A DNA stretch of 32,000 bases from Limisalsivibrio acetivorans (GTDB taxonomy: Bacteria; Chrysiogenota; Deferribacteres; Deferribacterales; Geovibrionaceae), in contig NZ_ATWF01000001.1 in assembly GCF_000421105.1 (NCBI RefSeq), forward strand, positions 21,987 to 53,986, given 5' to 3'. Each line of letters starts with the position of its first letter. Position 1 is the first letter of the stretch. Shown piece after piece: positions 6,259 through 15,401 of the stretch. The notes under the pieces were generated by a model. That model was not told the DNA's origin, did no database searches, and was given only the letters and a program-made list of their open reading frames with translations. The position numbers were made by a program, and so were the translations under genes.

Positions 6259-7398
6259 ATGAAAAGGGTTTTTCCCCCTCTCTTTGTTCTGGTTCTCATC
6301 GCTCTATTCACCTTTCTCCTTACAAACACCGATGAGCAGAATGAGAATGTAATCGAGGCAAAGGGTGTTGTTATATCCGTGGATAACTCGGAGGTTGTTA
6401 ATACGGGCATAGGGAGGATAGGCTTCCAGCTTGCAGAGGTTATGCTGACCGGTTCCAGATTCAAGGGTGAGAGGGTTACAGCGATAAACAACCTGCTCGG
6501 TCAGATGGAGATGGATGAGTTCTACGAGCCGGGGGATAAGCTGATTACGGCACTACTCGTTCAAAATGGAGAAATACGTGATGCAAAAACCATCAATCGA
6601 TACAGGCAGGGCTGGGAGCTTGGGCTCTTCGGAGTGTTTGTGGTTCTGCTTATCGTTTATGCCAGGTTTATAGGTCTAAAGGCGCTACTTTCCTTCGTTG
6701 CTTCTCTATATATCCTCTGGAAGATATTCATCCCCGGACTGCTGGGTGGGGGTGAGCCGATATTTTACACCGTTGTGACACTTTCTCTGCTGACCTTTGT
6801 TATCATATTCTCAGTGGCGGGTTTTACAAAGAAAGGTGTGGCAGCGTTTTTAGGTACAATAACGGGGCTTGCAGCGGCTATTGCCGTTACGGTATTCTTT
6901 GGAAGCAGGCTCGGTCTTATGGGGATGACACAGCCCTTCGCCCAGACACTTGTACTGTCCGGGCATATGGATCTAGACATGCTCAGGATCTTTTACGCAT
7001 CGGTTATCATCGGGGCATCCGGCGCGGCAATGGATATTGCCATGGATGTGGCCGCCTCTATGGATGAAATAAAGGCGAAACGTCCCGACATCGCCATGAA
7101 GGAGCTTATTCTGTCTGGATTTAATGTGGGTAGAGCTGTGGTGGGAACCATGACAACAACGCTTCTCCTCGCATATTCCGGCGGATATCTCACCCTGATA
7201 ATGCTTTTCGTATCGAGGGAGACCTCCTTCATGAGAATAATGAATTTCAAGCTCGTGGCCGCTGAGGTGTTCCGCACCCTTACAGGGAGCATCGGACTGG
7301 TTCTGGTGGCACCTGTGACAGCTCTCATAGCGGGGTGGATACTAACAATGGCCGGGGCGGACAAAGAGGAGATTGAGAGTGCTGAAACTGATTCATGA
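6259..7398 (+). CDS. YibE/F family membrane protein
   Basis: The 379-aa ORF has an N-terminal TM segment, a soluble beta-rich segment, then about 7 TM segments. The GASGAAMDIAMDVAASMDE motif is typical of YibE/F proteins. Confidence 0.8.
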   Translation: MKRVFPPLFVLVLIALFTFLLTNTDEQNENVIEAKGVVISVDNSEVVNTGIGRIGFQLAEVMLTGSRFKGERVTAINNLLGQMEMDEFYEPGDKLITALLVQNGEIRDAKTINRYRQGWELGLFGVFVVLLIVYARFIGLKALLSFVASLYILWKIFIPGLLGGGEPIFYTVVTLSLLTFVIIFSVAGFTKKGVAAFLGTITGLAAAIAVTVFFGSRLGLMGMTQPFAQTLVLSGHMDLDMLRIFYASVIIGASGAAMDIAMDVAASMDEIKAKRPDIAMKELILSGFNVGRAVVGTMTTTLLLAYSGGYLTLIMLFVSRETSFMRIMNFKLVAAEVFRTLTGSIGLVLVAPVTALIAGWILTMAGADKEEIESAETDS

Positions 7399-7837
7399 AC
7401 TACTCGGAACCGTTGCCCAATACGCCCTTTACACATCTGTAACTGCGGCTGTGCTGGTTTTTAAGTATAGATACGTCAGGGAGTATTGGGGGAGGCTGTT
7501 GCCTGAAAGATACAAGCCTTCAAGAAAGCTACTGCTTAACGTGCACAGGGGAGGGGCACTGCTTTTTATCATAGCGATGTTCTTTCATTTCTGGCTGGCA
7601 AACCCAGATGACAGAAACGTTCTGCTCATTTCCATTCCGTTCTTTGCAGGGATACTTCTGTTATGGGGCTTCGCATTCAGATTCAAAAAACACTTCGCTT
7701 CCAGATACCAGAGTGCTGTTTATGCAAAGGCCATCGTTATGGCTGTTCTGGCGTGTGTCATATGGATAGGGCACGGCATAGCCGAAAAGAGGATAGAAGA
7801 GCGTGAAGGTACTCGTATTTCAGAGACTGCTGATTAA
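7373..7837 (+). CDS. Hypothetical integral membrane protein (about 4 TM, conserved His residues; possibly DUF4405-like)
   Basis: The ORF overlaps the 3' end of the YibE/F gene. Hydrophobic segments contain NVHRGGALLFIIAMFFHFWL and WIGHG. The start is uncertain: TTG 7373 is only 1 nt after AGGAG (7367-7371), and GTG 7379 has better spacing. The family assignment is a guess. Confidence 0.5.
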   Translation: MRVLKLIHELLGTVAQYALYTSVTAAVLVFKYRYVREYWGRLLPERYKPSRKLLLNVHRGGALLFIIAMFFHFWLANPDDRNVLLISIPFFAGILLLWGFAFRFKKHFASRYQSAVYAKAIVMAVLACVIWIGHGIAEKRIEEREGTRISETAD

Positions 7838-8049
7838 TCTTTAAAGAGGACTTTAAACATTCTTTCAGTTCTCTCATTCACCATGGCGAGCTGTACCACA
7901 GGATGGTCGTGGTCCATTTCATTAAGATCGGCGTTTTTCGCCTTTTCATAGCTCATGGCAAACTGTATTGAGCCAAGGAACACGGTAATTGCCTGTACAA
8001 ACAGCAGAACCCTTTTGAGATGCTTTCCGAATAGACCGTTCTTTCTCAT
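7834..8049 (-). CDS. Small hypothetical protein (71 aa, one hydrophobic helix)
   Basis: I prefer ATG 8049..8047, preceded by GGAAGGTG, over the track's GTG at 8064. The product is MRKNGLFGKHLKRVLLFVQAITVFLGSIQFAM.... Its stop overlaps the convergent gene's stop (TTAA at 7834-7837). I recognise no family. Confidence 0.4.
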   Translation of the reverse strand: MRKNGLFGKHLKRVLLFVQAITVFLGSIQFAMSYEKAKNADLNEMDHDHPVVQLAMVNERTERMFKVLFKD

Positions 8050-8074
8050 GTAATCACCTTCCACATTGCTTGTG

Positions 8075-8102
8075 TCTATAGTTTAATCGGATAGGATTGC
8101 AA
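8075..8102 (-). promoter_or_regulatory. Candidate sigma70 promoter for the small minus-strand gene
   Basis: On the minus strand: -35 TTGCAA (8102..8097), a 16-nt spacer, then -10 TATAGA (8080..8075), about 25 nt upstream of ATG 8049. Confidence 0.3.
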
Positions 8103-8300
8103 AAAGTTTATCGCTTATTGATGGTTATTCAACTGTCTGATGATAAATCATATTTTGGCAGTAAACATATGTATGTAGGGATGGGGTGTTCATGTCTTCC
8201 ATGTTTATGCGTATAGATATAATAAATCCATAAGAAAAATCTATGCTCGAATTCGCATATTGATCTTATTCAGATAGATTAAAATGGGTTTTTGAGGGGT

Positions 8301-8341
8301 GCGGGGAACTTTGTTCCCTAAAAAGTTCCCTGCGATTTTTT
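8301..8341 (+). terminator. Orphan intrinsic-terminator-like hairpin on the + strand
   Basis: GCGGGGAACTTT (8301-8312), a 9-nt loop, AAAGTTCCCTGC (8322-8333), then GA and T6 (8336-8341). The G8303:T8331 pair is a wobble only on the + strand. No + strand CDS lies upstream of it. Confidence 0.55.
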
Positions 8342-8800
8342 CCTTTCATACTCAAATTAGAAATAAGCCACTAATCTCTTTGTCTTGCGCTTTCGCGCCA
8401 CATACTTTTTAGAAAAGTATGCAAAACTATTCCCTCAGGGTTTTTAAGCCGTCATTGTTATCAGTATTTTAATAAAATACTTATAACTGATAACGGTTCC
8501 CTCGCTTCGCACTCCCTTTTCCTGAATATTTCCTGATTCTGAGGAGGTTATTAACTTATCACAGTTAGCCGAAGCAATTATTCATAGATTCATCAATGGT
8601 TATCGTGCGGGAAATATTCCTGGCGGAAAAGTAATCGCTCGCTCGGCTTAAAAACATTCGGGGAAGAGAAGAAAGGGTTTTGGGTGCAATATCTTAGTGA
8701 CGTGAGTAATGGTTACTGGCAAAACAACTCTAGACGGGGCACGTTGTTTTGCTCGCATCGGGCACATGACAGCATGCTTTATAACGATCTACGTCGTCAT

Positions 8801-8957
8801 TAATCTGGGAAATTCATCATCCTGTTTAGTCTATGGAATTTCCCATCCATGGAAATTCCATTGCCGCTCTGCTTGGCAAAGCCTTCGCTTCGCTTACTTC
8901 CGGCTTCGTGAATTGAGCAGAGCCCAATTCAGCTACGCCTTCAGGGCCAACATCTAC
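8801..8957. repeat. Truncated and chimeric module copy (R1 with a 37-nt insertion, R2, and the first half of the next hairpin)
   Basis: 8899-8945 is identical to 9364-9410 (47 nt). 8946-8954 (CCAACATC) matches the left arm of the module A hairpin (9076-9083), not that of module B. TAATCTGGGAAATT recurs at 8801 and 8958. Confidence 0.7.
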
Positions 8958-9238
8958 ATAATCTGGGAAATTTATCATCCTGAGAATTTCCCTGCCGCTA
9001 CGCTCGGCAAAGCCTTCGCTCCGCTTACTTCCGTTACAGAATATGAAGCATAGCTCCATATTATTCACTTCAGAGCCAACATCCGTGTTGGCTTTATTAG
9101 TTTCAACCTCAAACGTATGATTAGTATAAGCTTTCATGGATGAAAGCTCGCTTGCGTAAGTGAGAGGAAAGTTTCTTTCTTCGAACGGCGGAATAATTTC
9201 CATGGACGGGAAATTATTCAGATAGATAAAGGAGTTTT
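8958..9238. repeat. Module A of the tandem array
   Basis: R1 is 8965-9033 (2 mismatches against 9298-9366). A diverged R2-like hairpin lies at 9040-9062 and a second hairpin at 9074-9093. R3 is 9115-9238 (3 mismatches in 124 nt against 9450-9573, no indels). Confidence 0.8.
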
Positions 9239-9248
9239 TAAGGGGTTC

Positions 9249-9284
9249 TTAAGGGGAACTTTTTACATAAAAATTTCCCCTTAG
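9249..9284 (+). other. Inter-module stem-loop, homologous in position to the 8301-8341 terminator hairpin
   Basis: A 15-bp stem pairs TTAAGGGGAACTTTT with AAAATTTCCCCTTAG, with one C:T mismatch and one T:G wobble that is legal only on the + strand. The loop is TACATA. The downstream sequence TCTTAATTC is only a weak U-tract. Confidence 0.5.
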
Positions 9285-9290
9285 TCTTAA

Positions 9291-9573
9291 TTCATCAGGG
9301 AAATTCATCATCCTGAGAATTTCCCTGTCGCTACGCTCGGCAAAGCCTTCGCTCCGCTTACTTCCGGCTTCGTGAATTGAGCAGAGCCCAATTCAGCTAC
9401 GCCTTCAGGGCTTCCATCCTTGGAAGCCTGTTGCATATCAACCTTGATTGTATGATTAGCATAAGCTTTCATGGATGAAAGCGCGCTTGCGTAAGTGAGA
9501 GGAAAGTTTCTTTCTTCGAACGGCAGAATAATTTCCATGGACGGGAAATTATTCAGATAGATAAAGGAGTTTT
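9291..9573. repeat. Module B of the tandem array
   Basis: R1 is 9298-9366, the R2 hairpin 9373-9395, the second hairpin 9409-9428 and R3 9450-9573. It ends 3 nt before the stop codon of the glyoxalase gene. Confidence 0.8.
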
Positions 9574-9576
9574 CCT

Positions 9577-9948
9577 TTACTTATCTGCAGGGATAATCTC
9601 CAGCCAGTATCCGTTGGGATCCTTTATGAAGTAGATTCCCATCTCCATATTCTCGAATACGATACAGTCCATATCCTTGTGCTTCTTATGGGCGGCTTCG
9701 AAATCGTCCACAACGAAGGCTATATGCAGATCATTATCGCCGTGATTATAGGGCTCATTCCGGTCTCTGAGCCATGTAAGCTCTATCTGACAGTCTGACT
9801 TCCCGTCCTCAAGGTAAACAAGGATAAACTTCCCTTCGGGTTGTTCAAACCTTCTGGCCTCTTTCAGGCCGAGTGCTTCTTCGAAGAACTTAACTGACTT
9901 ATCTAGATCTAGAACATTGATATTGGTGTGTACCATTCTGAAATCCAT
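9577..9948 (-). CDS. VOC-family protein / glyoxalase I-like (lactoylglutathione lyase family)
   Basis: MDFRMVHTNINVLDLDKSVKFFEEALGLK...IELTW...HIAF.V.D....H........YFIKDPNGYWLEI is a typical small glyoxalase I pattern. I place the start at ATG 9948, with AGGAGG 6 nt upstream, rather than the track's TTG at 9966. Confidence 0.85.
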   Translation of the reverse strand: MDFRMVHTNINVLDLDKSVKFFEEALGLKEARRFEQPEGKFILVYLEDGKSDCQIELTWLRDRNEPYNHGDNDLHIAFVVDDFEAAHKKHKDMDCIVFENMEMGIYFIKDPNGYWLEIIPADK

Positions 9949-9998
9949 GGAGCTCCTCCTGTTCAATAATAAGTGAATGCTATCACATCGATAGAAAG

Positions 9999-10029
9999 AA
10001 AAAAAGCCCGGACAATAACTGTACCGGGC
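9999..10029 (-). terminator. Rho-independent terminator after tctA (minus strand)
   Basis: On the minus strand: GCCCGG (10029..10024), a 12-nt loop, CCGGGC (10011..10006), then T7 (10005..9999). Confidence 0.65.
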
Positions 10030-10041
10030 CAGGAGGCGTGT

Positions 10042-11529
10042 CTATGAAGTTCCTGTTTTTTTCATTTTTGATAGGTAAATTGGAAGAAATAGAGTCAGAA
10101 GTGTCATTATCAGAATCACAAAGCTGATTGGGCGCATAAAAAGCTTTAATCCTCCAAGCTGGAGAACCCAGAATAGGTTTTTCTCAGCCAGCGGTCCAAG
10201 TATTAGTGCCAGAAGCATTGCTGGTATTGAGTAGCCGTATTTTTTAAGCAGTGCACCAAAAAGCCCGAAGATAACCACAAGCGTCATATCAAATAGAAGC
10301 TCCCGATATGCAAAACCGCCAACAAGGCAGAAGAGTGAAATTATTGGTACTAGTATAACTGTTGGTATTGATGAGAGATGGGGGAGAAATCTAAAAATTA
10401 CTAGCCCTGCGAAAAACATAACTATATTGACAAGTACAATTGATGCAAATATCGCATATGCCTCTGTTTTGAACTCTACAAAGAGGCTAGGGCCAGGCTG
10501 AATTCCATTGATCATCAGTGCTGCCATTATAATCAGGGTTGTCCCTGAGCCGGGTATGCCTAGGGTTAGCGTCGGTATCAGAGCCCCTCCTGTTACCCCG
10601 TTATTACAGGCATCACTTGCTGCGAGCCCCTCGTAGTCACCTGTTCCAAACTTTTCAGGTGTTTTTGACCACTGCTTGGATTGCCCATAGCTTATCCATG
10701 TCGCAATGGCTGCACCGGTACCTGGGATTAAACCTATAATAATCCCGATAACAGAAGATCTGATAAGATTGAGCTTCATGGAAACCGCTTTCTTCATACC
10801 TTCAAACAAAGAGCTGTAACCTTTGAATGATGTTTTGCCCTCTTGTATGATAGATTTTTCGTTTACCATCGTGATCAGTTCTGAGAAACCGAACAGACCA
10901 AGCAGAACAGGTATCAAAGGGAAACCTTCGTAAAGTTCAAATAGCCCGAAGCTTGAACGTGTATAGCCGACTTGGATTTCGGTTCCAACTGTTGCGAGCA
11001 ATAGCCCGAATGCAGACGAAAGCAGACCTTTCGAAACGCTTTTACCTGTTAATGAGCCTACTGCTGTGAGACCAAAAACAGCCACCATAAACATTTCAGC
11101 AGGGCCAAATGATAAGGCGTATACTCCTATGATAGGGGCTATTACGAAACAGACCACGGCGCTTATAAGGCCGCCGATTGTGGATGCTGCAAGGGATGCA
11201 CCCAATGCTTCGCCAGCCATACCTTTTTTTGTCATGGCAAACCCTTCAATGCATGTCGGTGCATTCGAGGGTGTTCCAGGTATGTTCATCAGTATGGCTG
11301 GAACGGATCCTCCTGCCTGTGAACCGCAGAATACAGCCATCATAAACATTACAGCCTGCATGGGGCCTAGATATACTGTGAATGGGAGCACAAGTGCCAG
11401 GACGTTGGTGTCATTGAATCCCGGTATTGCGCCAATGATAAATCCAAACAGGAGGCCAGCTACTAGAAACTGGATTATTCTTGGCTCAAGAACAGTCTTT
11501 ATGCCTTCAAGCATTGATACGTAATCCAT
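10042..11529 (-). CDS. tctA: Tripartite tricarboxylate transporter permease, large subunit TctA
   Basis: The 495-aa ORF has about 12 TM segments. It contains GAIPG, GGSVPAILMNIPGTPS and GLIPGTGAAIATWISY, the TctA family pattern. It is the last gene of the tctCBA order. Confidence 0.9.
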   Translation of the reverse strand: MDYVSMLEGIKTVLEPRIIQFLVAGLLFGFIIGAIPGFNDTNVLALVLPFTVYLGPMQAVMFMMAVFCGSQAGGSVPAILMNIPGTPSNAPTCIEGFAMTKKGMAGEALGASLAASTIGGLISAVVCFVIAPIIGVYALSFGPAEMFMVAVFGLTAVGSLTGKSVSKGLLSSAFGLLLATVGTEIQVGYTRSSFGLFELYEGFPLIPVLLGLFGFSELITMVNEKSIIQEGKTSFKGYSSLFEGMKKAVSMKLNLIRSSVIGIIIGLIPGTGAAIATWISYGQSKQWSKTPEKFGTGDYEGLAASDACNNGVTGGALIPTLTLGIPGSGTTLIIMAALMINGIQPGPSLFVEFKTEAYAIFASIVLVNIVMFFAGLVIFRFLPHLSSIPTVILVPIISLFCLVGGFAYRELLFDMTLVVIFGLFGALLKKYGYSIPAMLLALILGPLAEKNLFWVLQLGGLKLFMRPISFVILIMTLLTLFLPIYLSKMKKTGTS

Positions 11530-11537
11530 GATTCCCC

Positions 11538-12011
11538 CTAGAAAGAAATTCCAAATAGTTCAATGCTGGGCAAGCTTATCTGCATCGCCTTTATCAGGCT
11601 CAGATATAGAAATGCACATATTATTCCAGGTACAAGGATAAGCTGAAATACTGAATGAACGCCTAGAAAGAATAGTACAGATACTAAGTAGATAAAGCTT
11701 GAAAGTGTAAAACCAGCAAATGGAAGTGCTGTTAGATAGACAATAGTCAGAGCTATAAGGATAGCCGGTTTTTTGTAATGCTTTCTCGACTCTTTGCTTC
11801 CAGCAGACGGCAGGAGTTTTTCTCTGTTGTTGAACAGAACAATCATAAGCAGCAGTGATGTAAAACCGATAATAATGTATGGCCAAACCATAGCGACACG
11901 AGGAGCATCTGCTGTCTGGAATAGGTATACGCCTAAAAAACCTGCCATAAGGGCCGGGACGAATAATTCGCCCCGGCTGTTAGTTGATTTCTTTTCTGCC
12001 TTTTCGCTCAT
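11538..12011 (-). CDS. tctB: Tripartite tricarboxylate transporter small membrane subunit TctB
   Basis: The 157-aa protein has 4 TM segments and sits between tctC and tctA, with a 4-nt overlap with tctC. The call rests mainly on size, topology and position. Confidence 0.75.
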   Translation of the reverse strand: MSEKAEKKSTNSRGELFVPALMAGFLGVYLFQTADAPRVAMVWPYIIIGFTSLLLMIVLFNNREKLLPSAGSKESRKHYKKPAILIALTIVYLTALPFAGFTLSSFIYLVSVLFFLGVHSVFQLILVPGIICAFLYLSLIKAMQISLPSIELFGISF

Positions 12012-13021
12012 TTTGTCACTAAATGTCCGTATTTGTTTAGTGTAGACTGAAAGTCTTTAAGGAATGCTTCGCATTCAGAAGGGCTCCAGTAATCCATGAA
12101 GTCACCCATGCCGATGGAAGCCGCCTTTTCACGTGCCTTCTTAGAGAAGTGAGCTTCTTTGAATGTGTCCACAAGTTTTGCATACCTGTCAGGATATTTC
12201 TTCTCTACATCTCTTCTGATATGAAAGGCAAACGGCTCAACGAAGTTGGGAACGGTAACATCAAGCACTTCGTTCACAGGCGGCATTTCCCATATGTGAG
12301 GAGCAGGGTTCTTTGTGTTGAAAATTCCGATACCTTTAATGAATTCTTTAAGATTAGATGCACTAAAGAAGGGTGCTATACATGCATCGACGTGTTTTCC
12401 TGCGAGGGCTTTTCTTGCAGCAGAACCGCCGTCAAAGGGTACGATTTTTGCATTTCCGCCGATAAGCTCAAGAAACACTCTTGCAGCAAAAGTGTTCGAA
12501 GCAATAGGGTGACTAGCACTTATGGTAACAGGCTCTTTAGCATTTCTCACATGGTCAACGAATTCATCAAGATTGTTCCATGGTGAATCTTTATGTATCA
12601 GTACACAATCGGGGTCGCTAATAACATTGCCCACGAATCCGATATCGTTAAAGTCTGCTGCAGGTTTGCCATACTTAACAACCATTGCCTGCATGCTTAT
12701 TGTCATCATAATGGTTGTGTAGCCGTCAGGTTTAGCAGCTCTAATCTTGCCGAAACCTATCTGTCCGCTTGCTCCTGGTGAGAAGGAGAACTTAACAGGT
12801 TGACCAAGCACAGGCTCCCATGCTTCTGCCAGAACACGGCTGGAACGGTCCCATCCGCCTCCGGCTTTTGCAGGAACAATGTGATTGATTGGTTTCGATG
12901 GGAAATCTTCTGCAAAAACTGGGAAACCGCTGCTTGCTGCCATGAGTGCTCCTGCACCCACCAGGCTGTTTCTGAGGAAATTTCTTCTTGAGATTTCAGC
13001 ACCGTTTAATAAATCTTTCAT
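12008..13021 (-). CDS. tctC: Tripartite tricarboxylate transporter substrate-binding protein TctC (Bug family) with a twin-arginine-type signal
   Basis: The N-terminus reads SRRNFLRNSLVGAGALMAASSGFPVFA. The remainder is Bug/TctC-like (VPAKAGGGWD, GASGQIG, PFDGGSAARKALAGKHVDA). Confidence 0.85.
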   Translation of the reverse strand: MKDLLNGAEISRRNFLRNSLVGAGALMAASSGFPVFAEDFPSKPINHIVPAKAGGGWDRSSRVLAEAWEPVLGQPVKFSFSPGASGQIGFGKIRAAKPDGYTTIMMTISMQAMVVKYGKPAADFNDIGFVGNVISDPDCVLIHKDSPWNNLDEFVDHVRNAKEPVTISASHPIASNTFAARVFLELIGGNAKIVPFDGGSAARKALAGKHVDACIAPFFSASNLKEFIKGIGIFNTKNPAPHIWEMPPVNEVLDVTVPNFVEPFAFHIRRDVEKKYPDRYAKLVDTFKEAHFSKKAREKAASIGMGDFMDYWSPSECEAFLKDFQSTLNKYGHLVTK

Positions 13022-13034
13022 CTTAGAACCTCCT

Positions 13035-13901
13035 TTAGACAGATAACAGCCTCTGGCAGTTATCTCGCCACATTATTTCTATATCTCTCTTGGGTATTCC
13101 TTTATCTGAAAGACACTGTCCATAGATACGAAGAATTTCGGATGGCCAGGGTTTTCGCCACTGTCCACCATCGCTTGAGATTATGAAATTTTCCGGACCG
13201 TGCTTTTTGATCATTTCAATGTGGTTTTCAAAAGAACCCATTCCGGGGATGGGGTACAAGTTGCCTGCACAGATCTCTATCACAGCACCTTGAGAAATCA
13301 GCCTCTCAATGTCTTCGTCATTTAAGTTAGGAGGTTCAAAATCTGGATGGGTTATCAGTAGCTTTTTGAACTCCATTCTCTTTGCGAGATCGCCAAGGGC
13401 AAGGACTTCCTCTCTGGATATGTGTGCAGTTCCAACTATGGCATCATGATTTTTAGCAATGGCCATTACTTCCTCGGCTTGCTGTATAAGGTTTCCTTCT
13501 GAATCTAAGATAGAAATGGGCTCATATGATGTTTCTAATACAGAACCATGAGCCCCATGTTGTCCTGGGCTGCCATATCTTTTTGAATGGGCTGCTGAAT
13601 CCATGGTAGGCATCCATATCTGTTTGCCCCCCATTTTTACAGCTGTTTCAGTGGCTACGGGGTTAATCCCTCCAACAGCTCTGTTAAGGACAATGCCTCC
13701 GTATACCTCTATGTCATAAAGCTTGTTAGCGTGGTAAGCTCCTATTGTGCTCGGAGCTAGATGTTTTTTAAGCATGATACCGGCTAGGCCGTCTTTCATA
13801 CATCGTTCGGCCATCTCCAGATCATCCGCCATCCGGTTGAAAAGAGATGGATCTGTGTGAATATGCAGATCGTAAGCCCCTGAGATACTGATAATTTCCA
13901 T
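13035..13901 (-). CDS. Putative metal-dependent hydrolase (amidohydrolase/TIM-barrel-like; exact family uncertain)
   Basis: The 288-aa ORF has an N-terminal DLHIHTD (HxH metal motif), with later GTAHIS, ITHPDF and SSDGGQ as candidate metal ligands. It is co-operonic with gntR and tctCBA. I cannot name the family with confidence. Confidence 0.55.
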   Translation of the reverse strand: MEIISISGAYDLHIHTDPSLFNRMADDLEMAERCMKDGLAGIMLKKHLAPSTIGAYHANKLYDIEVYGGIVLNRAVGGINPVATETAVKMGGKQIWMPTMDSAAHSKRYGSPGQHGAHGSVLETSYEPISILDSEGNLIQQAEEVMAIAKNHDAIVGTAHISREEVLALGDLAKRMEFKKLLITHPDFEPPNLNDEDIERLISQGAVIEICAGNLYPIPGMGSFENHIEMIKKHGPENFIISSDGGQWRKPWPSEILRIYGQCLSDKGIPKRDIEIMWRDNCQRLLSV

Positions 13902-13906
13902 TTTAT

Positions 13907-14617
13907 CTACCTTATGCGTACATGATATCGGAAACGATCCCCACGGCCGAAGCTTCTTCTATACTCCACTGGTTCTTCTCCGAATGTTCTTGCTATTCTC
14001 GTTATTTCGATAAGGGGGGAACATTCCCCTATGCCAAGATATTGTGCTTGCTCCTCGTTGGCTGTTGCCGCATTGAGATACTCGTCTGCACTAACCACAA
14101 GAACCTTGAATTCCTGCTCGTAGATAGGATAGAGAAGTTTTTCAGAGATATCTTTCTTCTCCATGCCCTCAAACAGCTCGTGAGGCAGATAAAGATCTTC
14201 GTAAACTAAAGGTATTTCATCAAAAAGACGTACCCTTCTTATGTGGACAACCAAGGAACCTTTTTCAATCATGAGGTGTTTACAGACATCTTCGGGTGCT
14301 TCAATAACCTCAGATATCAGAACCTTTGACCTTGGAACTGGCCTGGATTTGTCCTTGCCCACATCATAACGGAAGAACCTGTATAGGCTGTTTTCAAAAT
14401 TCGGTCTTGCTACAAAACTCCCTATCCCCTGTCTTCTGTACAGGTATCCTTCATTTACCAGTTCCTGGAGTGCTCTTTTTACTGTTCCGGGTGATACATC
14501 GAAAATTCTGCATAATTCAGCCTCCGATGGAATGGGCTTTCTGAATTCCCACATGCCCGAGGCGATCTTCTCTTTGATCGAGTCCTTAATCATCGAGTAA
14601 AGAGGTGTAGTATCCAA
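13907..14617 (-). CDS. GntR-family transcriptional regulator, HutC/UTRA subfamily
   Basis: The N-terminal winged HTH reads LPSEAELCRIFDVSPGTVKRALQELVNEGYLYRRQGIGSFV, followed by a C-terminal UTRA-like effector domain. The start is TTG, with AGGAG 6 nt upstream. Confidence 0.9.
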   Translation of the reverse strand: MDTTPLYSMIKDSIKEKIASGMWEFRKPIPSEAELCRIFDVSPGTVKRALQELVNEGYLYRRQGIGSFVARPNFENSLYRFFRYDVGKDKSRPVPRSKVLISEVIEAPEDVCKHLMIEKGSLVVHIRRVRLFDEIPLVYEDLYLPHELFEGMEKKDISEKLLYPIYEQEFKVLVVSADEYLNAATANEEQAQYLGIGECSPLIEITRIARTFGEEPVEYRRSFGRGDRFRYHVRIR

Positions 14618-14643
14618 AGTTAACTCCTTATATATGGTTTAAA

Positions 14644-14690
14644 TGTATAACTTATATAACTTATATAACTAAGTTGGATATGTTTCGCAA
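14644..14690 (-). promoter_or_regulatory. Candidate promoter plus operator of the gntR-hydrolase-tctCBA operon
   Basis: On the minus strand: -35 TTGCGA (14690..14685), a 17-nt spacer, then -10 TATATA (14667..14662). Three tandem 9-bp units TATAACTTA (14646-14654, 14655-14663, 14664-14672; the last has 1 mismatch) overlap and follow the -10. They contain GT..AC cores of the kind GntR regulators bind. Confidence 0.4.
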
Positions 14691-14834
14691 GTATAATTAT
14701 TTTATATTTTGAACATTCATGGTAAGTGTCTGGTGATAATGTTGTAAAAAAAACTATTAGCGAATGTTTTAGGGGGATGCAATGTGTAGGTTGGTGAAAC
14801 AGTATGGTATTTTAAAACAATAGCAAAGAGTGTT

Positions 14835-15401
14835 CTATATTTCCAGTTCTCTGACCTCGGCAAACCTGTTCTCTTCACCCTGAAGCTTGAAGGTTGCTGT
14901 GAGGGCGTCGAAGGAGCGATCAAGAATTGTAAGCCCCTCCTTTTCAATGAGGTATTCAAGGGGCTGTATCCTGTCGTAGGGGACTGTTATGCTTTCCGTG
15001 TAGAGAGAGTCCATGGATATAAGCTGTGCAGAGCCTATAACACTCTGTGCAGCATCGTTGTATGCACGAACCAATCCTCCCGTGCCAAGCTTTATGCCGC
15101 CGAAGTAGCGCACTGTGATAATGGCACATTCTATGAGTGAATGCCCTTCCATCGCCTTAAGAGTTGGTTTGCCCGACGTATTTTTAGGTTCGCCGTCGTC
15201 GCTGGAATTTTCTTCAATCTGGCCGTTATCGTTTATTGTGCGGTACGCCCAGACGTAGTGCCGCCCTTTGGGATGTTTTCCCCGTATATTCTCCATTGCC
15301 TCATTGAAAGAAGCGTAAGGGAAGAGGTAGGCGATGAACTGGGATTTTTTGATCTCAACGCAAGCCTCGCTGGCTTTGGATACGGTGTAGAGTCCCTTCA
15401 T
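14835..15401 (-). CDS. YigZ / IMPACT-family protein (UPF0029)
   Basis: IKKSQFIAYLFP, HPKGRHYVWAY, DDGEP..TSGKP and VTRYFGGIKLGTGGLVRAY are YigZ hallmark motifs. Confidence 0.85.
   Translation of the reverse strand: MKGLYTVSKASEACVEIKKSQFIAYLFPYASFNEAMENIRGKHPKGRHYVWAYRTINDNGQIEENSSDDGEPKNTSGKPTLKAMEGHSLIECAIITVRYFGGIKLGTGGLVRAYNDAAQSVIGSAQLISMDSLYTESITVPYDRIQPLEYLIEKEGLTILDRSFDALTATFKLQGEENRFAEVRELEI

Follow-up and report, generated by a model that had tools for sequence, protein, structure and literature searches.

What fills some 1.5 kb between two bacterial genes when no convincing gene can be seen in it? The question is raised by a stretch of 32,000 nucleotides from Limisalsivibrio acetivorans (contig NZ_ATWF01000001.1, positions 21,987 to 53,986), which is called the window here and to which coordinates refer unless another contig is named. 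Ahead of the stop codon of a VOC/glyoxalase gene it contains a gap, 8266-9575, that an original prediction, made from the letters alone, had described as a tandem array of hairpin-dense modules of about 0.3 kb. The gap is confirmed to consist of local copies of an intergenic repeat of about 105 bases with three hairpins, common to Limisalsivibrio and Geovibrio. The tandem, non-coding and hairpin-dense character of the 0.3-kb module stands, but not its place as the basic entity, since the unit is only about 105 nt long. We regard it as probable that the gap is a cluster of non-coding structured interspersed repeats, belonging to a Geovibrionaceae family like REP/BIME or BOX elements. The family is apparently undescribed: it is found neither in Rfam nor in the literature searched.

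A three-hairpin unit shared with Geovibrio

Read on one strand, the unit consists of a leader, hairpin 1, a linker, hairpin 2 with an AAA loop, a second linker, and hairpin 3. The leader is AT-rich (ATCTATCTGAATAA or ATAATCC) and there are two types of linker, ACACGCTCGC for linker 1 and TTCGCTACGCACGGCG for linker 2. Units in Geovibrio have ATAATCC or TATCTATTC as leader, ATACACGCTCGC and TTCGCTACGCACGGCGCA as linkers, a variable stem with the AAA loop in hairpin 2, and the loop ATCCAT in hairpin 3. The loops of hairpins 1 and 3 keep the pattern C-R-TCC-W-K, in which TCC is the only invariant part.

The relationship between the two genera was established with a covariance model whose seed was six Geovibrio units, with no units from the window. 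This model matches the window units at 9458-9563 and 9123-9228, both on the minus strand, at E ~1e-8, although window units share no more than 42-55% of their nucleotides with those of Geovibrio. In a model-guided alignment of 15 units, where the fit to the model inflates the figures somewhat, 95.7% of stem cells are paired and changes on both sides are seen in 21 of 23 stem pairs. Compensatory cells number 74, as against 19.9 in shuffles, and none of 500 shuffles reaches the observed number; when the partner register is slid by one column, pairing falls to 55-60%. The stems are almost purely Watson-Crick, with G-U pairs in 1 of 280 cells. Among the distinct stems are AAATTTCC, AAAAAAC, AAAATCCG and GGGAAATT in hairpin 1, and GGATTGC, ACCCTGC, CCGCAC, GGACGGA and GAAAG in hairpin 2. 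This compensatory variety is unambiguous even though the alignment was fitted to the model, and the hairpins are the conserved feature of the family.

The original prediction had divided each module into a block R1, an R2 hairpin, an 8-bp stem and a block R3. Here, R3 aligns as a complete unit on the minus strand. The other three blocks (R1, R2 and the 8-bp stem) make up one diverged plus-strand unit, in which R2 takes the place of an additional hairpin 2 and the 8-bp stem that of hairpin 3. A 335-bp module thus contains two units in convergent orientation, along with a spacer hairpin. The strand of the modules, which had been left undecided, turns out to be both, as they hold units in either orientation, and the hints that had pointed to the plus strand hold for the spacer hairpin at 8301-8341 (better plus-strand fold, T6 tail) and for nothing else. 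The features of the gap are as follows, with bits and E values from the covariance model where a match is given.

8961-9573, no strand: 335-bp tandem duplication (module A, spacer, module B), from Tandem Repeats Finder, blastn and alignment.
9458-9563, minus: complete three-hairpin unit, the R3 of module B (42.5 bits, E = 1.7e-8); leader 9549-9563, hairpin 1 9526-9554 (GAATAATTTCC-CGTCCAT-GGAAATTATTC), hairpin 2 9502-9514 (GAAAG-AAA-CTTTC on the minus strand), hairpin 3 9465-9482 (loop ATCCAT).
9123-9228, minus: complete three-hairpin unit, the R3 of module A (40.9 bits, E = 4e-8; fold z = -4.3); leader 9214-9228, hairpin 1 9191-9219, hairpin 2 9167-9179, hairpin 3 9129-9148.
9291-9434, plus: diverged unit of module B, made of R1, R2 and the 8-bp stem (match 9287-9434, 22.1 bits, E = 1.5e-3; with filters off, two matches, 9289-9351 and 9354-9434); hairpin 1 9296-9327 (loop CATCATCCTGAG), mini hairpin 2 9339-9347 (GGC-AAA-GCC), second hairpin 2 with linker 9373-9408, hairpin 3 9409-9428 (GCTTCCA-TCCT-TGGAAGC).
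8958-9095, plus: diverged unit of module A (13.1 bits; E = 0.22 over all loci, 0.004 in a local search), 96% identical to that of module B over R1; hairpin 1 8965-8992, mini hairpin 2 9006-9014, extra hairpin 9040-9062, hairpin 3 9074-9093 (AGCCAACA-TCCG-TGTTGGCT).
8801-8957, plus: truncated unit "T" (match 8824-8914, 28.5 bits, E = 4e-5), with a type-I hairpin 1 at 8833-8861 (ATGGAATTTCC-CATCCAT-GGAAATTCCAT) that resembles the Geovibrio units most closely.
9249-9284, no strand: spacer palindrome between the modules (TAAGGGGAAC...TTTCCCCTTA; inverted repeat I10, 94% complementary).
8266-8341, plus: remnant of a unit leader (8266-8282), after which comes an earlier copy of the spacer hairpin; 80% identical to 9214-9279, nhmmer E = 3.8e-6.
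8453-8553, plus: degenerate older unit, a weak match (filters off, 12 bits, E = 0.0076 in a 3.6-kb search); hairpin 8457-8487, then CCCTCGCTTCGCAC as the counterpart of linker 2.

The tandem arrangement was reproduced by independent programs. Tandem Repeats Finder reports a period of 335 with 1.8 copies and 85% matches, and the duplication ends 3 nt ahead of the VOC/glyoxalase stop codon at 9577. By blastn, modules A and B are 84% identical over 287 nt, and the truncated copy (8835-8947) is 88% identical to module B over 114 nt. The two R3 blocks (9115-9238 and 9450-9573, 124 nt) differ by just the three mismatches that had been reported (9125, 9148 and 9190), with no indels, and the R1 blocks of A and B differ at 3 of 73 positions; the 28-mer tail of R1 occurs three times in the window and not at all in shuffles. 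Between these blocks, which are 96-98% identical, a middle part of about 85 nt has diverged, and its hairpins have different stems in the two modules, each internally complementary as a result of compensatory changes. Hairpin density also came out as predicted, with about 14 distinct perfect hairpins with stems of at least 7 bp in the gap (mean of 1.0 in shuffles, 0-6 in other tiles of the window), and the modules fold with z ~ -4 on either strand. The palindrome AATTTCC-C(A/G)TCCAT-GGAAATT, which underlies the inverted repeats I1 and I4, is the sole element common to the truncated copy (on the plus strand) and R3 (on the minus strand). No further copies of the module were found elsewhere in the window by k-mer count, blastn or nhmmer.

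The left border of the cluster is marked by a 14-mer, TTATTCAGATAGAT, which is found at 8266, 9214 and 9549 and is the reverse complement of the unit leader (compare ACTATCTATTCAAAAAA in Geovibrio). It had been taken for the end of an older module, and this end is real because the homology runs on through the GGGGAAC hairpin, with 80% identity between 8266-8330 and 9214-9279 by blastn. The hairpin at 8301-8341 has a 12-bp stem (8301-8333), which includes a single G-T pair, and its loop is 9 nt long; after it comes GATTTTTTCC, with a T6 tract at 8336-8341. It was overlooked in the terminator scan because its loop is longer than 8 nt. With -20.9 kcal/mol on the plus strand (z = -3.45) and -14.1 on the minus strand (z = -1.84), its modelled fold looks like a plus-strand intrinsic terminator, about 460 nt downstream of an open reading frame (ORF) at 7373-7837. 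Between 8342 and 8800 the nhmmer module profile found no decayed units, and the covariance model gave the weak match at 8453-8553 alone. An R1-like remnant at 8606-8650, seen by eye, is without statistical support and was set aside. The 335-bp composite was thus duplicated in tandem recently, as the 96-98% identity of its R1 and R3 blocks shows, and older, decayed copies lie to its left.

Arrays in Geovibrio and copies elsewhere in L. acetivorans

The Geovibrio units were retrieved with a core 21-mer from the truncated unit, AATTTCCCNTCCATGGAAATT, scanned against 596 Gb of genomes, for which we estimate that about one match would be expected by chance. Four loci were found, one of them in a metagenome-assembled genome of the Deferribacterales with three matches 94 nt apart, and a metagenome scan added three further contigs with tandem arrays. 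The ExbB protein encoded on one of the array contigs is 100% identical to that of Geovibrio sp. ADMFC3, 94% to that of G. ferrireducens and 74% to that of L. acetivorans; because of the 100% match, the contigs were assigned to Geovibrio sp. Three single matches to the 21-mer in unrelated phyla were taken as chance, two of the three lying inside apparent coding sequence. It is worth noting that the high-GC betaproteobacterium Ideonella margarita has, on contig L008 at 6703-6723, an exact 21-nt palindrome AATTTCCATGGATGGGAAATT in an apparently intergenic position. This copy is probably due to chance, and the covariance model matches its hairpin only (E = 0.04). Another pattern, GGCAAAGCCTTCGCTNCGCTTAC, had no match in the DNA collections scanned, a set outside which the L. 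acetivorans genome lies.

In Geovibrio, arrays occupy at least five intergenic loci. One 20-kb region has arrays in three gaps (DAO|DJ-1, ABC-ATPase|ModA and TPR|ExbB), and further arrays lie beside nikR and on contig L011. All of the units, at least 18, are arranged head-to-tail on one strand. The arrays fill operon-internal gaps, from a stop codon to the next ribosome-binding site. Copy numbers differ between close relatives: at nikR there are 3 units in one assembly and 4 in another, and upstream of exbB 2, 3 and at least 4 units are found in different strains, as a mosaic of hairpin-1 types. The TPR|ExbB gap measures 281-633 nt in Geovibrio against 10-49 nt in four other Deferribacterales, and the ABC|ModA gap 123-269 nt against 2 nt in one other Deferribacterales genome. 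The arrays that G. ferrireducens carries at these sites have diverged, and at ABC|ModA what is left is a decayed remnant. In the TPR|ExbB gap of this species (contig L013, 9519-10000) other repeated hairpin modules can be seen as well, such as ATTGCGAACTCTTTAAGAGTGAAGCAAT and a CCCCC-TTTTTAAAA-GGGGG hairpin, and the family may thus include further module types beyond those in the covariance model. The distribution of the family is patchy, with no match to the model in 103 kb of five other genomes. Several Geovibrio contigs break or carry runs of N inside the arrays (L012 at about 9560-9660, L018 at about 7400-7490 and 880-920, the start of L009 and the end of L011), which makes the repeats a practical reason for the fragmentation of assemblies in this genus.

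Copies elsewhere in the L. acetivorans genome came to light through protein databases. The earlier statement that the gap has no convincing coding sequence holds biologically but not for the databases, which list ORFs over the repeat. Two such entries fall in the gap.

8829-9137, minus: WP_022849626.1, hypothetical protein of 103 aa (NCBI).
9311-9538, minus: UPI0003B53086, 76 aa (UniParc).

When the 76-aa ORF was searched with phmmer against 1.84 billion representative proteins, it gave four partial matches, all of them orphan ORFs of L. acetivorans: WP_022849626.1 in this gap, and WP_022851564.1, WP_022849887.1 and UPI0003B58001, which are encoded elsewhere. These last three are "ghost" ORFs, called spuriously over other copies of the repeat and with no homologues beyond this group, and they have 76-84% amino-acid identity to the window repeat. 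One of the ghost ORFs reproduces the junction between a minus unit and the hairpin of the adjacent plus unit, and in UPI0003B58001 the spacer hairpin adjoins a T-type unit at another locus. As these ORFs lie over repeat copies, the element is present at no fewer than three further L. acetivorans loci, at least four in all. Judged from their sequences, WP_022849626.1, UPI0003B53086, WP_022851564.1 and WP_022849887.1 are probably annotation artefacts.

Taken as observations, copies of the element are scattered over the genome and are found in more than one genus, the element is amplified and changes in copy number between strains, and some intergenic sites that carry it are empty in relatives.

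Competing explanations and known relatives

Could the modules be genes after all? One proposal is that they are decayed tandem duplicates of a small minus-strand protein gene, and ATG-started ORFs of 76 and 125 aa are indeed present in the modules, with ORFs listed by NCBI and UniParc as hypothetical proteins. We find this scarcely credible. Neither ORF has a Pfam match, and their sole homologues among the 1.84 billion proteins are the orphan ORFs over repeat copies of the same genome. Divergence biased towards synonymous sites, which had been named beforehand as what would speak for coding, is not seen: all three substitutions in R3 (3/3) fall at codon positions 1 or 2 and are non-synonymous, and the covariation in the stems alters the encoded residues. 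The two ORFs read the R1 DNA in different frames, one in frame 0 and the other in frame 2, and none of the periods 94, 112 and 335 is a multiple of 3. In a direct reading of the sequence, no Shine-Dalgarno motif was seen upstream of either ATG. An improbable proposal, though better placed, is that the modules are tandem plus-strand genes for small RNAs, every one of them with a promoter of its own and ending at the GGGGAAC spacer hairpin, which would act by base-pairing or in another way that does not involve CsrA. The terminator-like hairpin with its T6 tract at 8301-8341, the folding of both module strands and the variable middle between conserved flanks, which could be a seed region, would fit. 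The promoter scan gave 3 sites where 4.6 are expected by chance, however, the second spacer hairpin (9249-9284) has no T-run, the units are on both strands, the Geovibrio arrays occupy operon-internal gaps, and the family is found at many loci with a presence that varies among relatives. The original prediction knew of no matching non-coding RNA, and Rfam 15 agrees: at gathering thresholds there is no match in the window or the Geovibrio loci, and at E <= 10 there is only noise. A third proposal treats the 11+7+11 palindromes (AATTTCC-N7-GGAAATT) as recombinase core sites, with 8837-8857 to 9195-9215 (or 9530-9550) as an invertible switch. The geometry of arms and spacer resembles that of tyrosine-recombinase core sites, and inverted repeats I4 (21 nt, 95%) and I1 (33 nt, 82%) flank 337-648 bp. 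The "inverted" copy is explained by whole units in opposite orientation, no recombinase is encoded in the window, and the arms vary where the spacer, which is the hairpin loop, is kept, the reverse of a binding site in double-stranded DNA; a switch of this kind is very improbable.

The most serious rival, possible if unlikely, is that the units are CsrA-binding modules at the RNA level, so that arrays transcribed along with their neighbours, or as separate RNAs, would bind or titrate CsrA, in Geovibrio beside the downstream ribosome-binding site. CsrB carries CAGGA(U/C/A)G repeats, and the present units share with CsrB/CsrC/RsmX-Z short repeated hairpins with A(N)GGA(N)G loops, variable stems and tandem duplication. 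On the reverse strand all distinct intact loops of hairpins 1 and 3 (16/16) contain A(N)GGA, in the pattern A(N)GGA(N)G (AUGGAUG, AUGGACG, AUGGAAG, ACAGGAUGUA, GCAGGACGCU, ACAGGACG, CUCAGGAUGAUA, CACGGAUGU and CAAGGAUGG), and GGA with its flanking A and G are their sole constants. The CsrA consensus is RUACARGGAUGU with GGA within a hairpin loop (PMC8668096), and members of the Deferribacteres have CsrA together with FliW (PMC4682653). All five Geovibrio loci (5/5) have GGA on the sense strand of a flanking gene. Three arrays (DJ-1, ModA and ExbB) stop shortly before a GGAGG ribosome-binding site, and about 27-47 nt separate that site from the last GGA loop. Would-be G-U cells number 24 on the GGA strand against 8 on the other, although these cells are not independent events. 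Several points go the other way. The stems are nearly pure Watson-Crick, with few G-U pairs for an RNA family; the 12-mer consensus, scoring 7-9 against 5-8 of 12, fails to tell the strands apart; GGA is missing from hairpin 2 and from the GC-rich linkers in spite of their conservation; the window units lie in both orientations with no downstream gene in register; and replication-linked insertion could equally give the orientation bias. Unlike CsrB and the Rsm RNAs, the units occupy many loci inside operons and not one or a few dedicated genes, they have no recognised promoter or terminator of their own, they include the extra GC-rich linkers and a hairpin lacking GGA, and they are not matched by the CsrB and Rsm models of Rfam. 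A broader version of the idea, which we consider rather doubtful, predicts from the loop sequences that the family is a portable CsrA-binding module, which would equip operon gaps and 3' untranslated regions with A(N)GGA(N)G hairpins in pairs, would bring neighbours (ExbB/ExbD, ModA and DJ-1 in Geovibrio) under the control of CsrA and would act collectively as a CsrA sponge. In the FliW-type systems of the Deferribacteres the one known antagonist of CsrA is the protein FliW, and no small RNA is known in that role (PMC4682653). If true, this would be the first RNA-level CsrA partner outside the Gammaproteobacteria, and a case of regulatory sites spread by a repeat element.

Other identities were tried and rejected. 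A sigma-54 promoter candidate in R1, CGGCAA-N5-TCGCT, scores no better than many intragenic sites, and its GG and GC fall in hairpin 2, which is variable in Geovibrio. An integron attC site is not indicated either, as no integrase is encoded in the window and no GTTRRRY core was seen at the hairpin bases, the hairpins being read by eye. Regarding an origin from a plasmid or phage, blastn in distant mode gave no match and scans of viral contigs were empty. For a MITE, the original prediction had envisaged further copies with terminal inverted repeats and target-site duplications at their borders: the copies were found, the repeats and duplications were not. The ends of the window modules are not inverted copies of each other, and at the junctions of filled and empty TPR|ExbB and ABC|ModA sites there are no terminal inverted repeats and no target-site duplication.

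The interspersed-repeat reading that we favour has its closest models in the REP, BIME and REPIN elements, which are likewise extragenic, high-copy and hairpin-forming, with stems kept by compensatory change. REPs and BIMEs also form mosaic clusters with other motifs, occur as convergent pairs (as in the window), show long vertical inheritance and are often co-transcribed in operon gaps. By this measure the hairpins found here are 18-29 nt long, all intergenic, and present at no fewer than four L. acetivorans loci and five Geovibrio loci. The present unit differs from a REP, which is a single palindrome of 20-40 nt, in being about 105 nt long with three hairpins and conserved single-stranded linkers. 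Orientation differs between the genera, with convergent pairs in the window and head-to-tail order in the 18 or more Geovibrio units, and such strictly head-to-tail arrays are rare for REPs. Pneumococcal BOX elements (boxA-boxB(n)-boxC) are alike in being modular, strongly structured and intergenic, near gene starts, with an internal module amplified head-to-tail and copy number varying between strains; they are unlike in having distinct terminal modules and a host in another phylum, and no relationship in sequence is known. What is conserved here is the loop, and in REPs it is an unpaired GTAG or CGTC tag at the foot of the stem (PMC3733652). No such foot tag is present: the bases flanking the stems vary (GTAT, GTGT, GTCT, TTAT), and CGTC is seen only inside some loops. 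No RAYT (a Y1 transposase) is encoded in the window or listed in the gene tables of the scanned loci. Membership in the tagged REP super-family was rejected on the missing foot tag, the far larger unit and the head-to-tail Geovibrio arrays (PMC3733652). The PATEs derived from IS200/IS605 resemble the family in having hairpins of the same type on the same strand at both ends of the unit, regional copies in one orientation, and strictly Watson-Crick stems, as expected of hairpins in single-stranded DNA. They differ in that no TnpA or TnpB is seen here, no conserved cleavage or target tetranucleotide can be defined at the junctions, and the arrays are better explained by local amplification.

As an interspersed repeat, the family would behave as a non-autonomous element of the REP/BIME or BOX kind. 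A trans-acting protein encoded away from the units would recognise the hairpins with their conserved loops, and the most likely candidate would be an enzyme that acts at the DNA level on single-stranded hairpins, which is favoured because the stems are strictly Watson-Crick. The element would spread to new intergenic sites and then expand and contract locally by unequal recombination or replication slippage, and read-through from neighbouring genes would produce stable mRNA hairpins as a side effect. Several observations weigh against this account. There is no mobilising enzyme in the 32-kb window or among the called genes of the Geovibrio loci, and no terminal inverted repeats, target-site duplications or GTAG/CGTC tags are found. 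Two Geovibrio species have arrays at the same three sites, so that movement is not recent. Finally, every Geovibrio array has the same orientation with respect to its flanking genes, the linkers are more conserved than the stems, and the loops match a known RNA-protein recognition motif, features that also fit a selected RNA function.

Genomic setting and meaning of the family

In the window the gene order is an ordinary one: alkaline phosphatase, YibE/F, two small membrane ORFs, the gap, VOC/glyoxalase, TctABC and other metabolic genes. The YibE/F, TctA and VOC proteins match proteins of L. acetivorans (Deferribacterota, Geovibrionaceae) at 100% identity. In the nearest relative whose genome was scanned, alkaline phosphatase and YibE/F are found together, but synteny breaks right after YibE/F and there are no units. 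G+C content is 0.40-0.45 over 8001-15000, compared with about 0.50 in the sequence to the left and right, the TctA homologues that match best (65%) belong to other phyla, and the TctA homologue search gave no Geovibrio among its matches. From its composition and relatives, the glyoxalase-TctABC block may be a horizontal acquisition that is bordered by the repeat cluster. No transposase or recombinase is encoded in the 32-kb window, and no transposase is listed among the called genes of the Geovibrio loci or in the other gene tables fetched.

Three smaller observations concern the neighbourhood. The 71-aa hypothetical protein WP_022849625.1 (7837-8049, minus) has a good ribosome-binding site, AAGGTGA, and a hydrophobic N-terminus, with no Pfam match. 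The membrane-like ORF of 154 aa at 7373-7837 (plus) meets the end of WP_022849625.1 with its 3' end, and it too has no Pfam match. Further to the right, at 14646-14670, there is a perfect 9-bp tandem repeat, TATAACTTA x 2.8, just upstream of a gene for a GntR/UTRA regulator (13907-14617, minus); this repeat may be an operator or promoter feature.

For the locus itself, the repeat accounts for a 1.5-kb stretch that was previously without explanation, and it supplies a defined unit and a covariance model for a family that is missing from Rfam. Most work on structured interspersed repeats has dealt with Proteobacteria and Firmicutes, and this family comes from the Deferribacterota. With a conserved loop in place of a foot tag, with filled and empty orthologous sites, and with copy numbers that change between strains, it offers a usable system for the study of how such repeats spread and persist.

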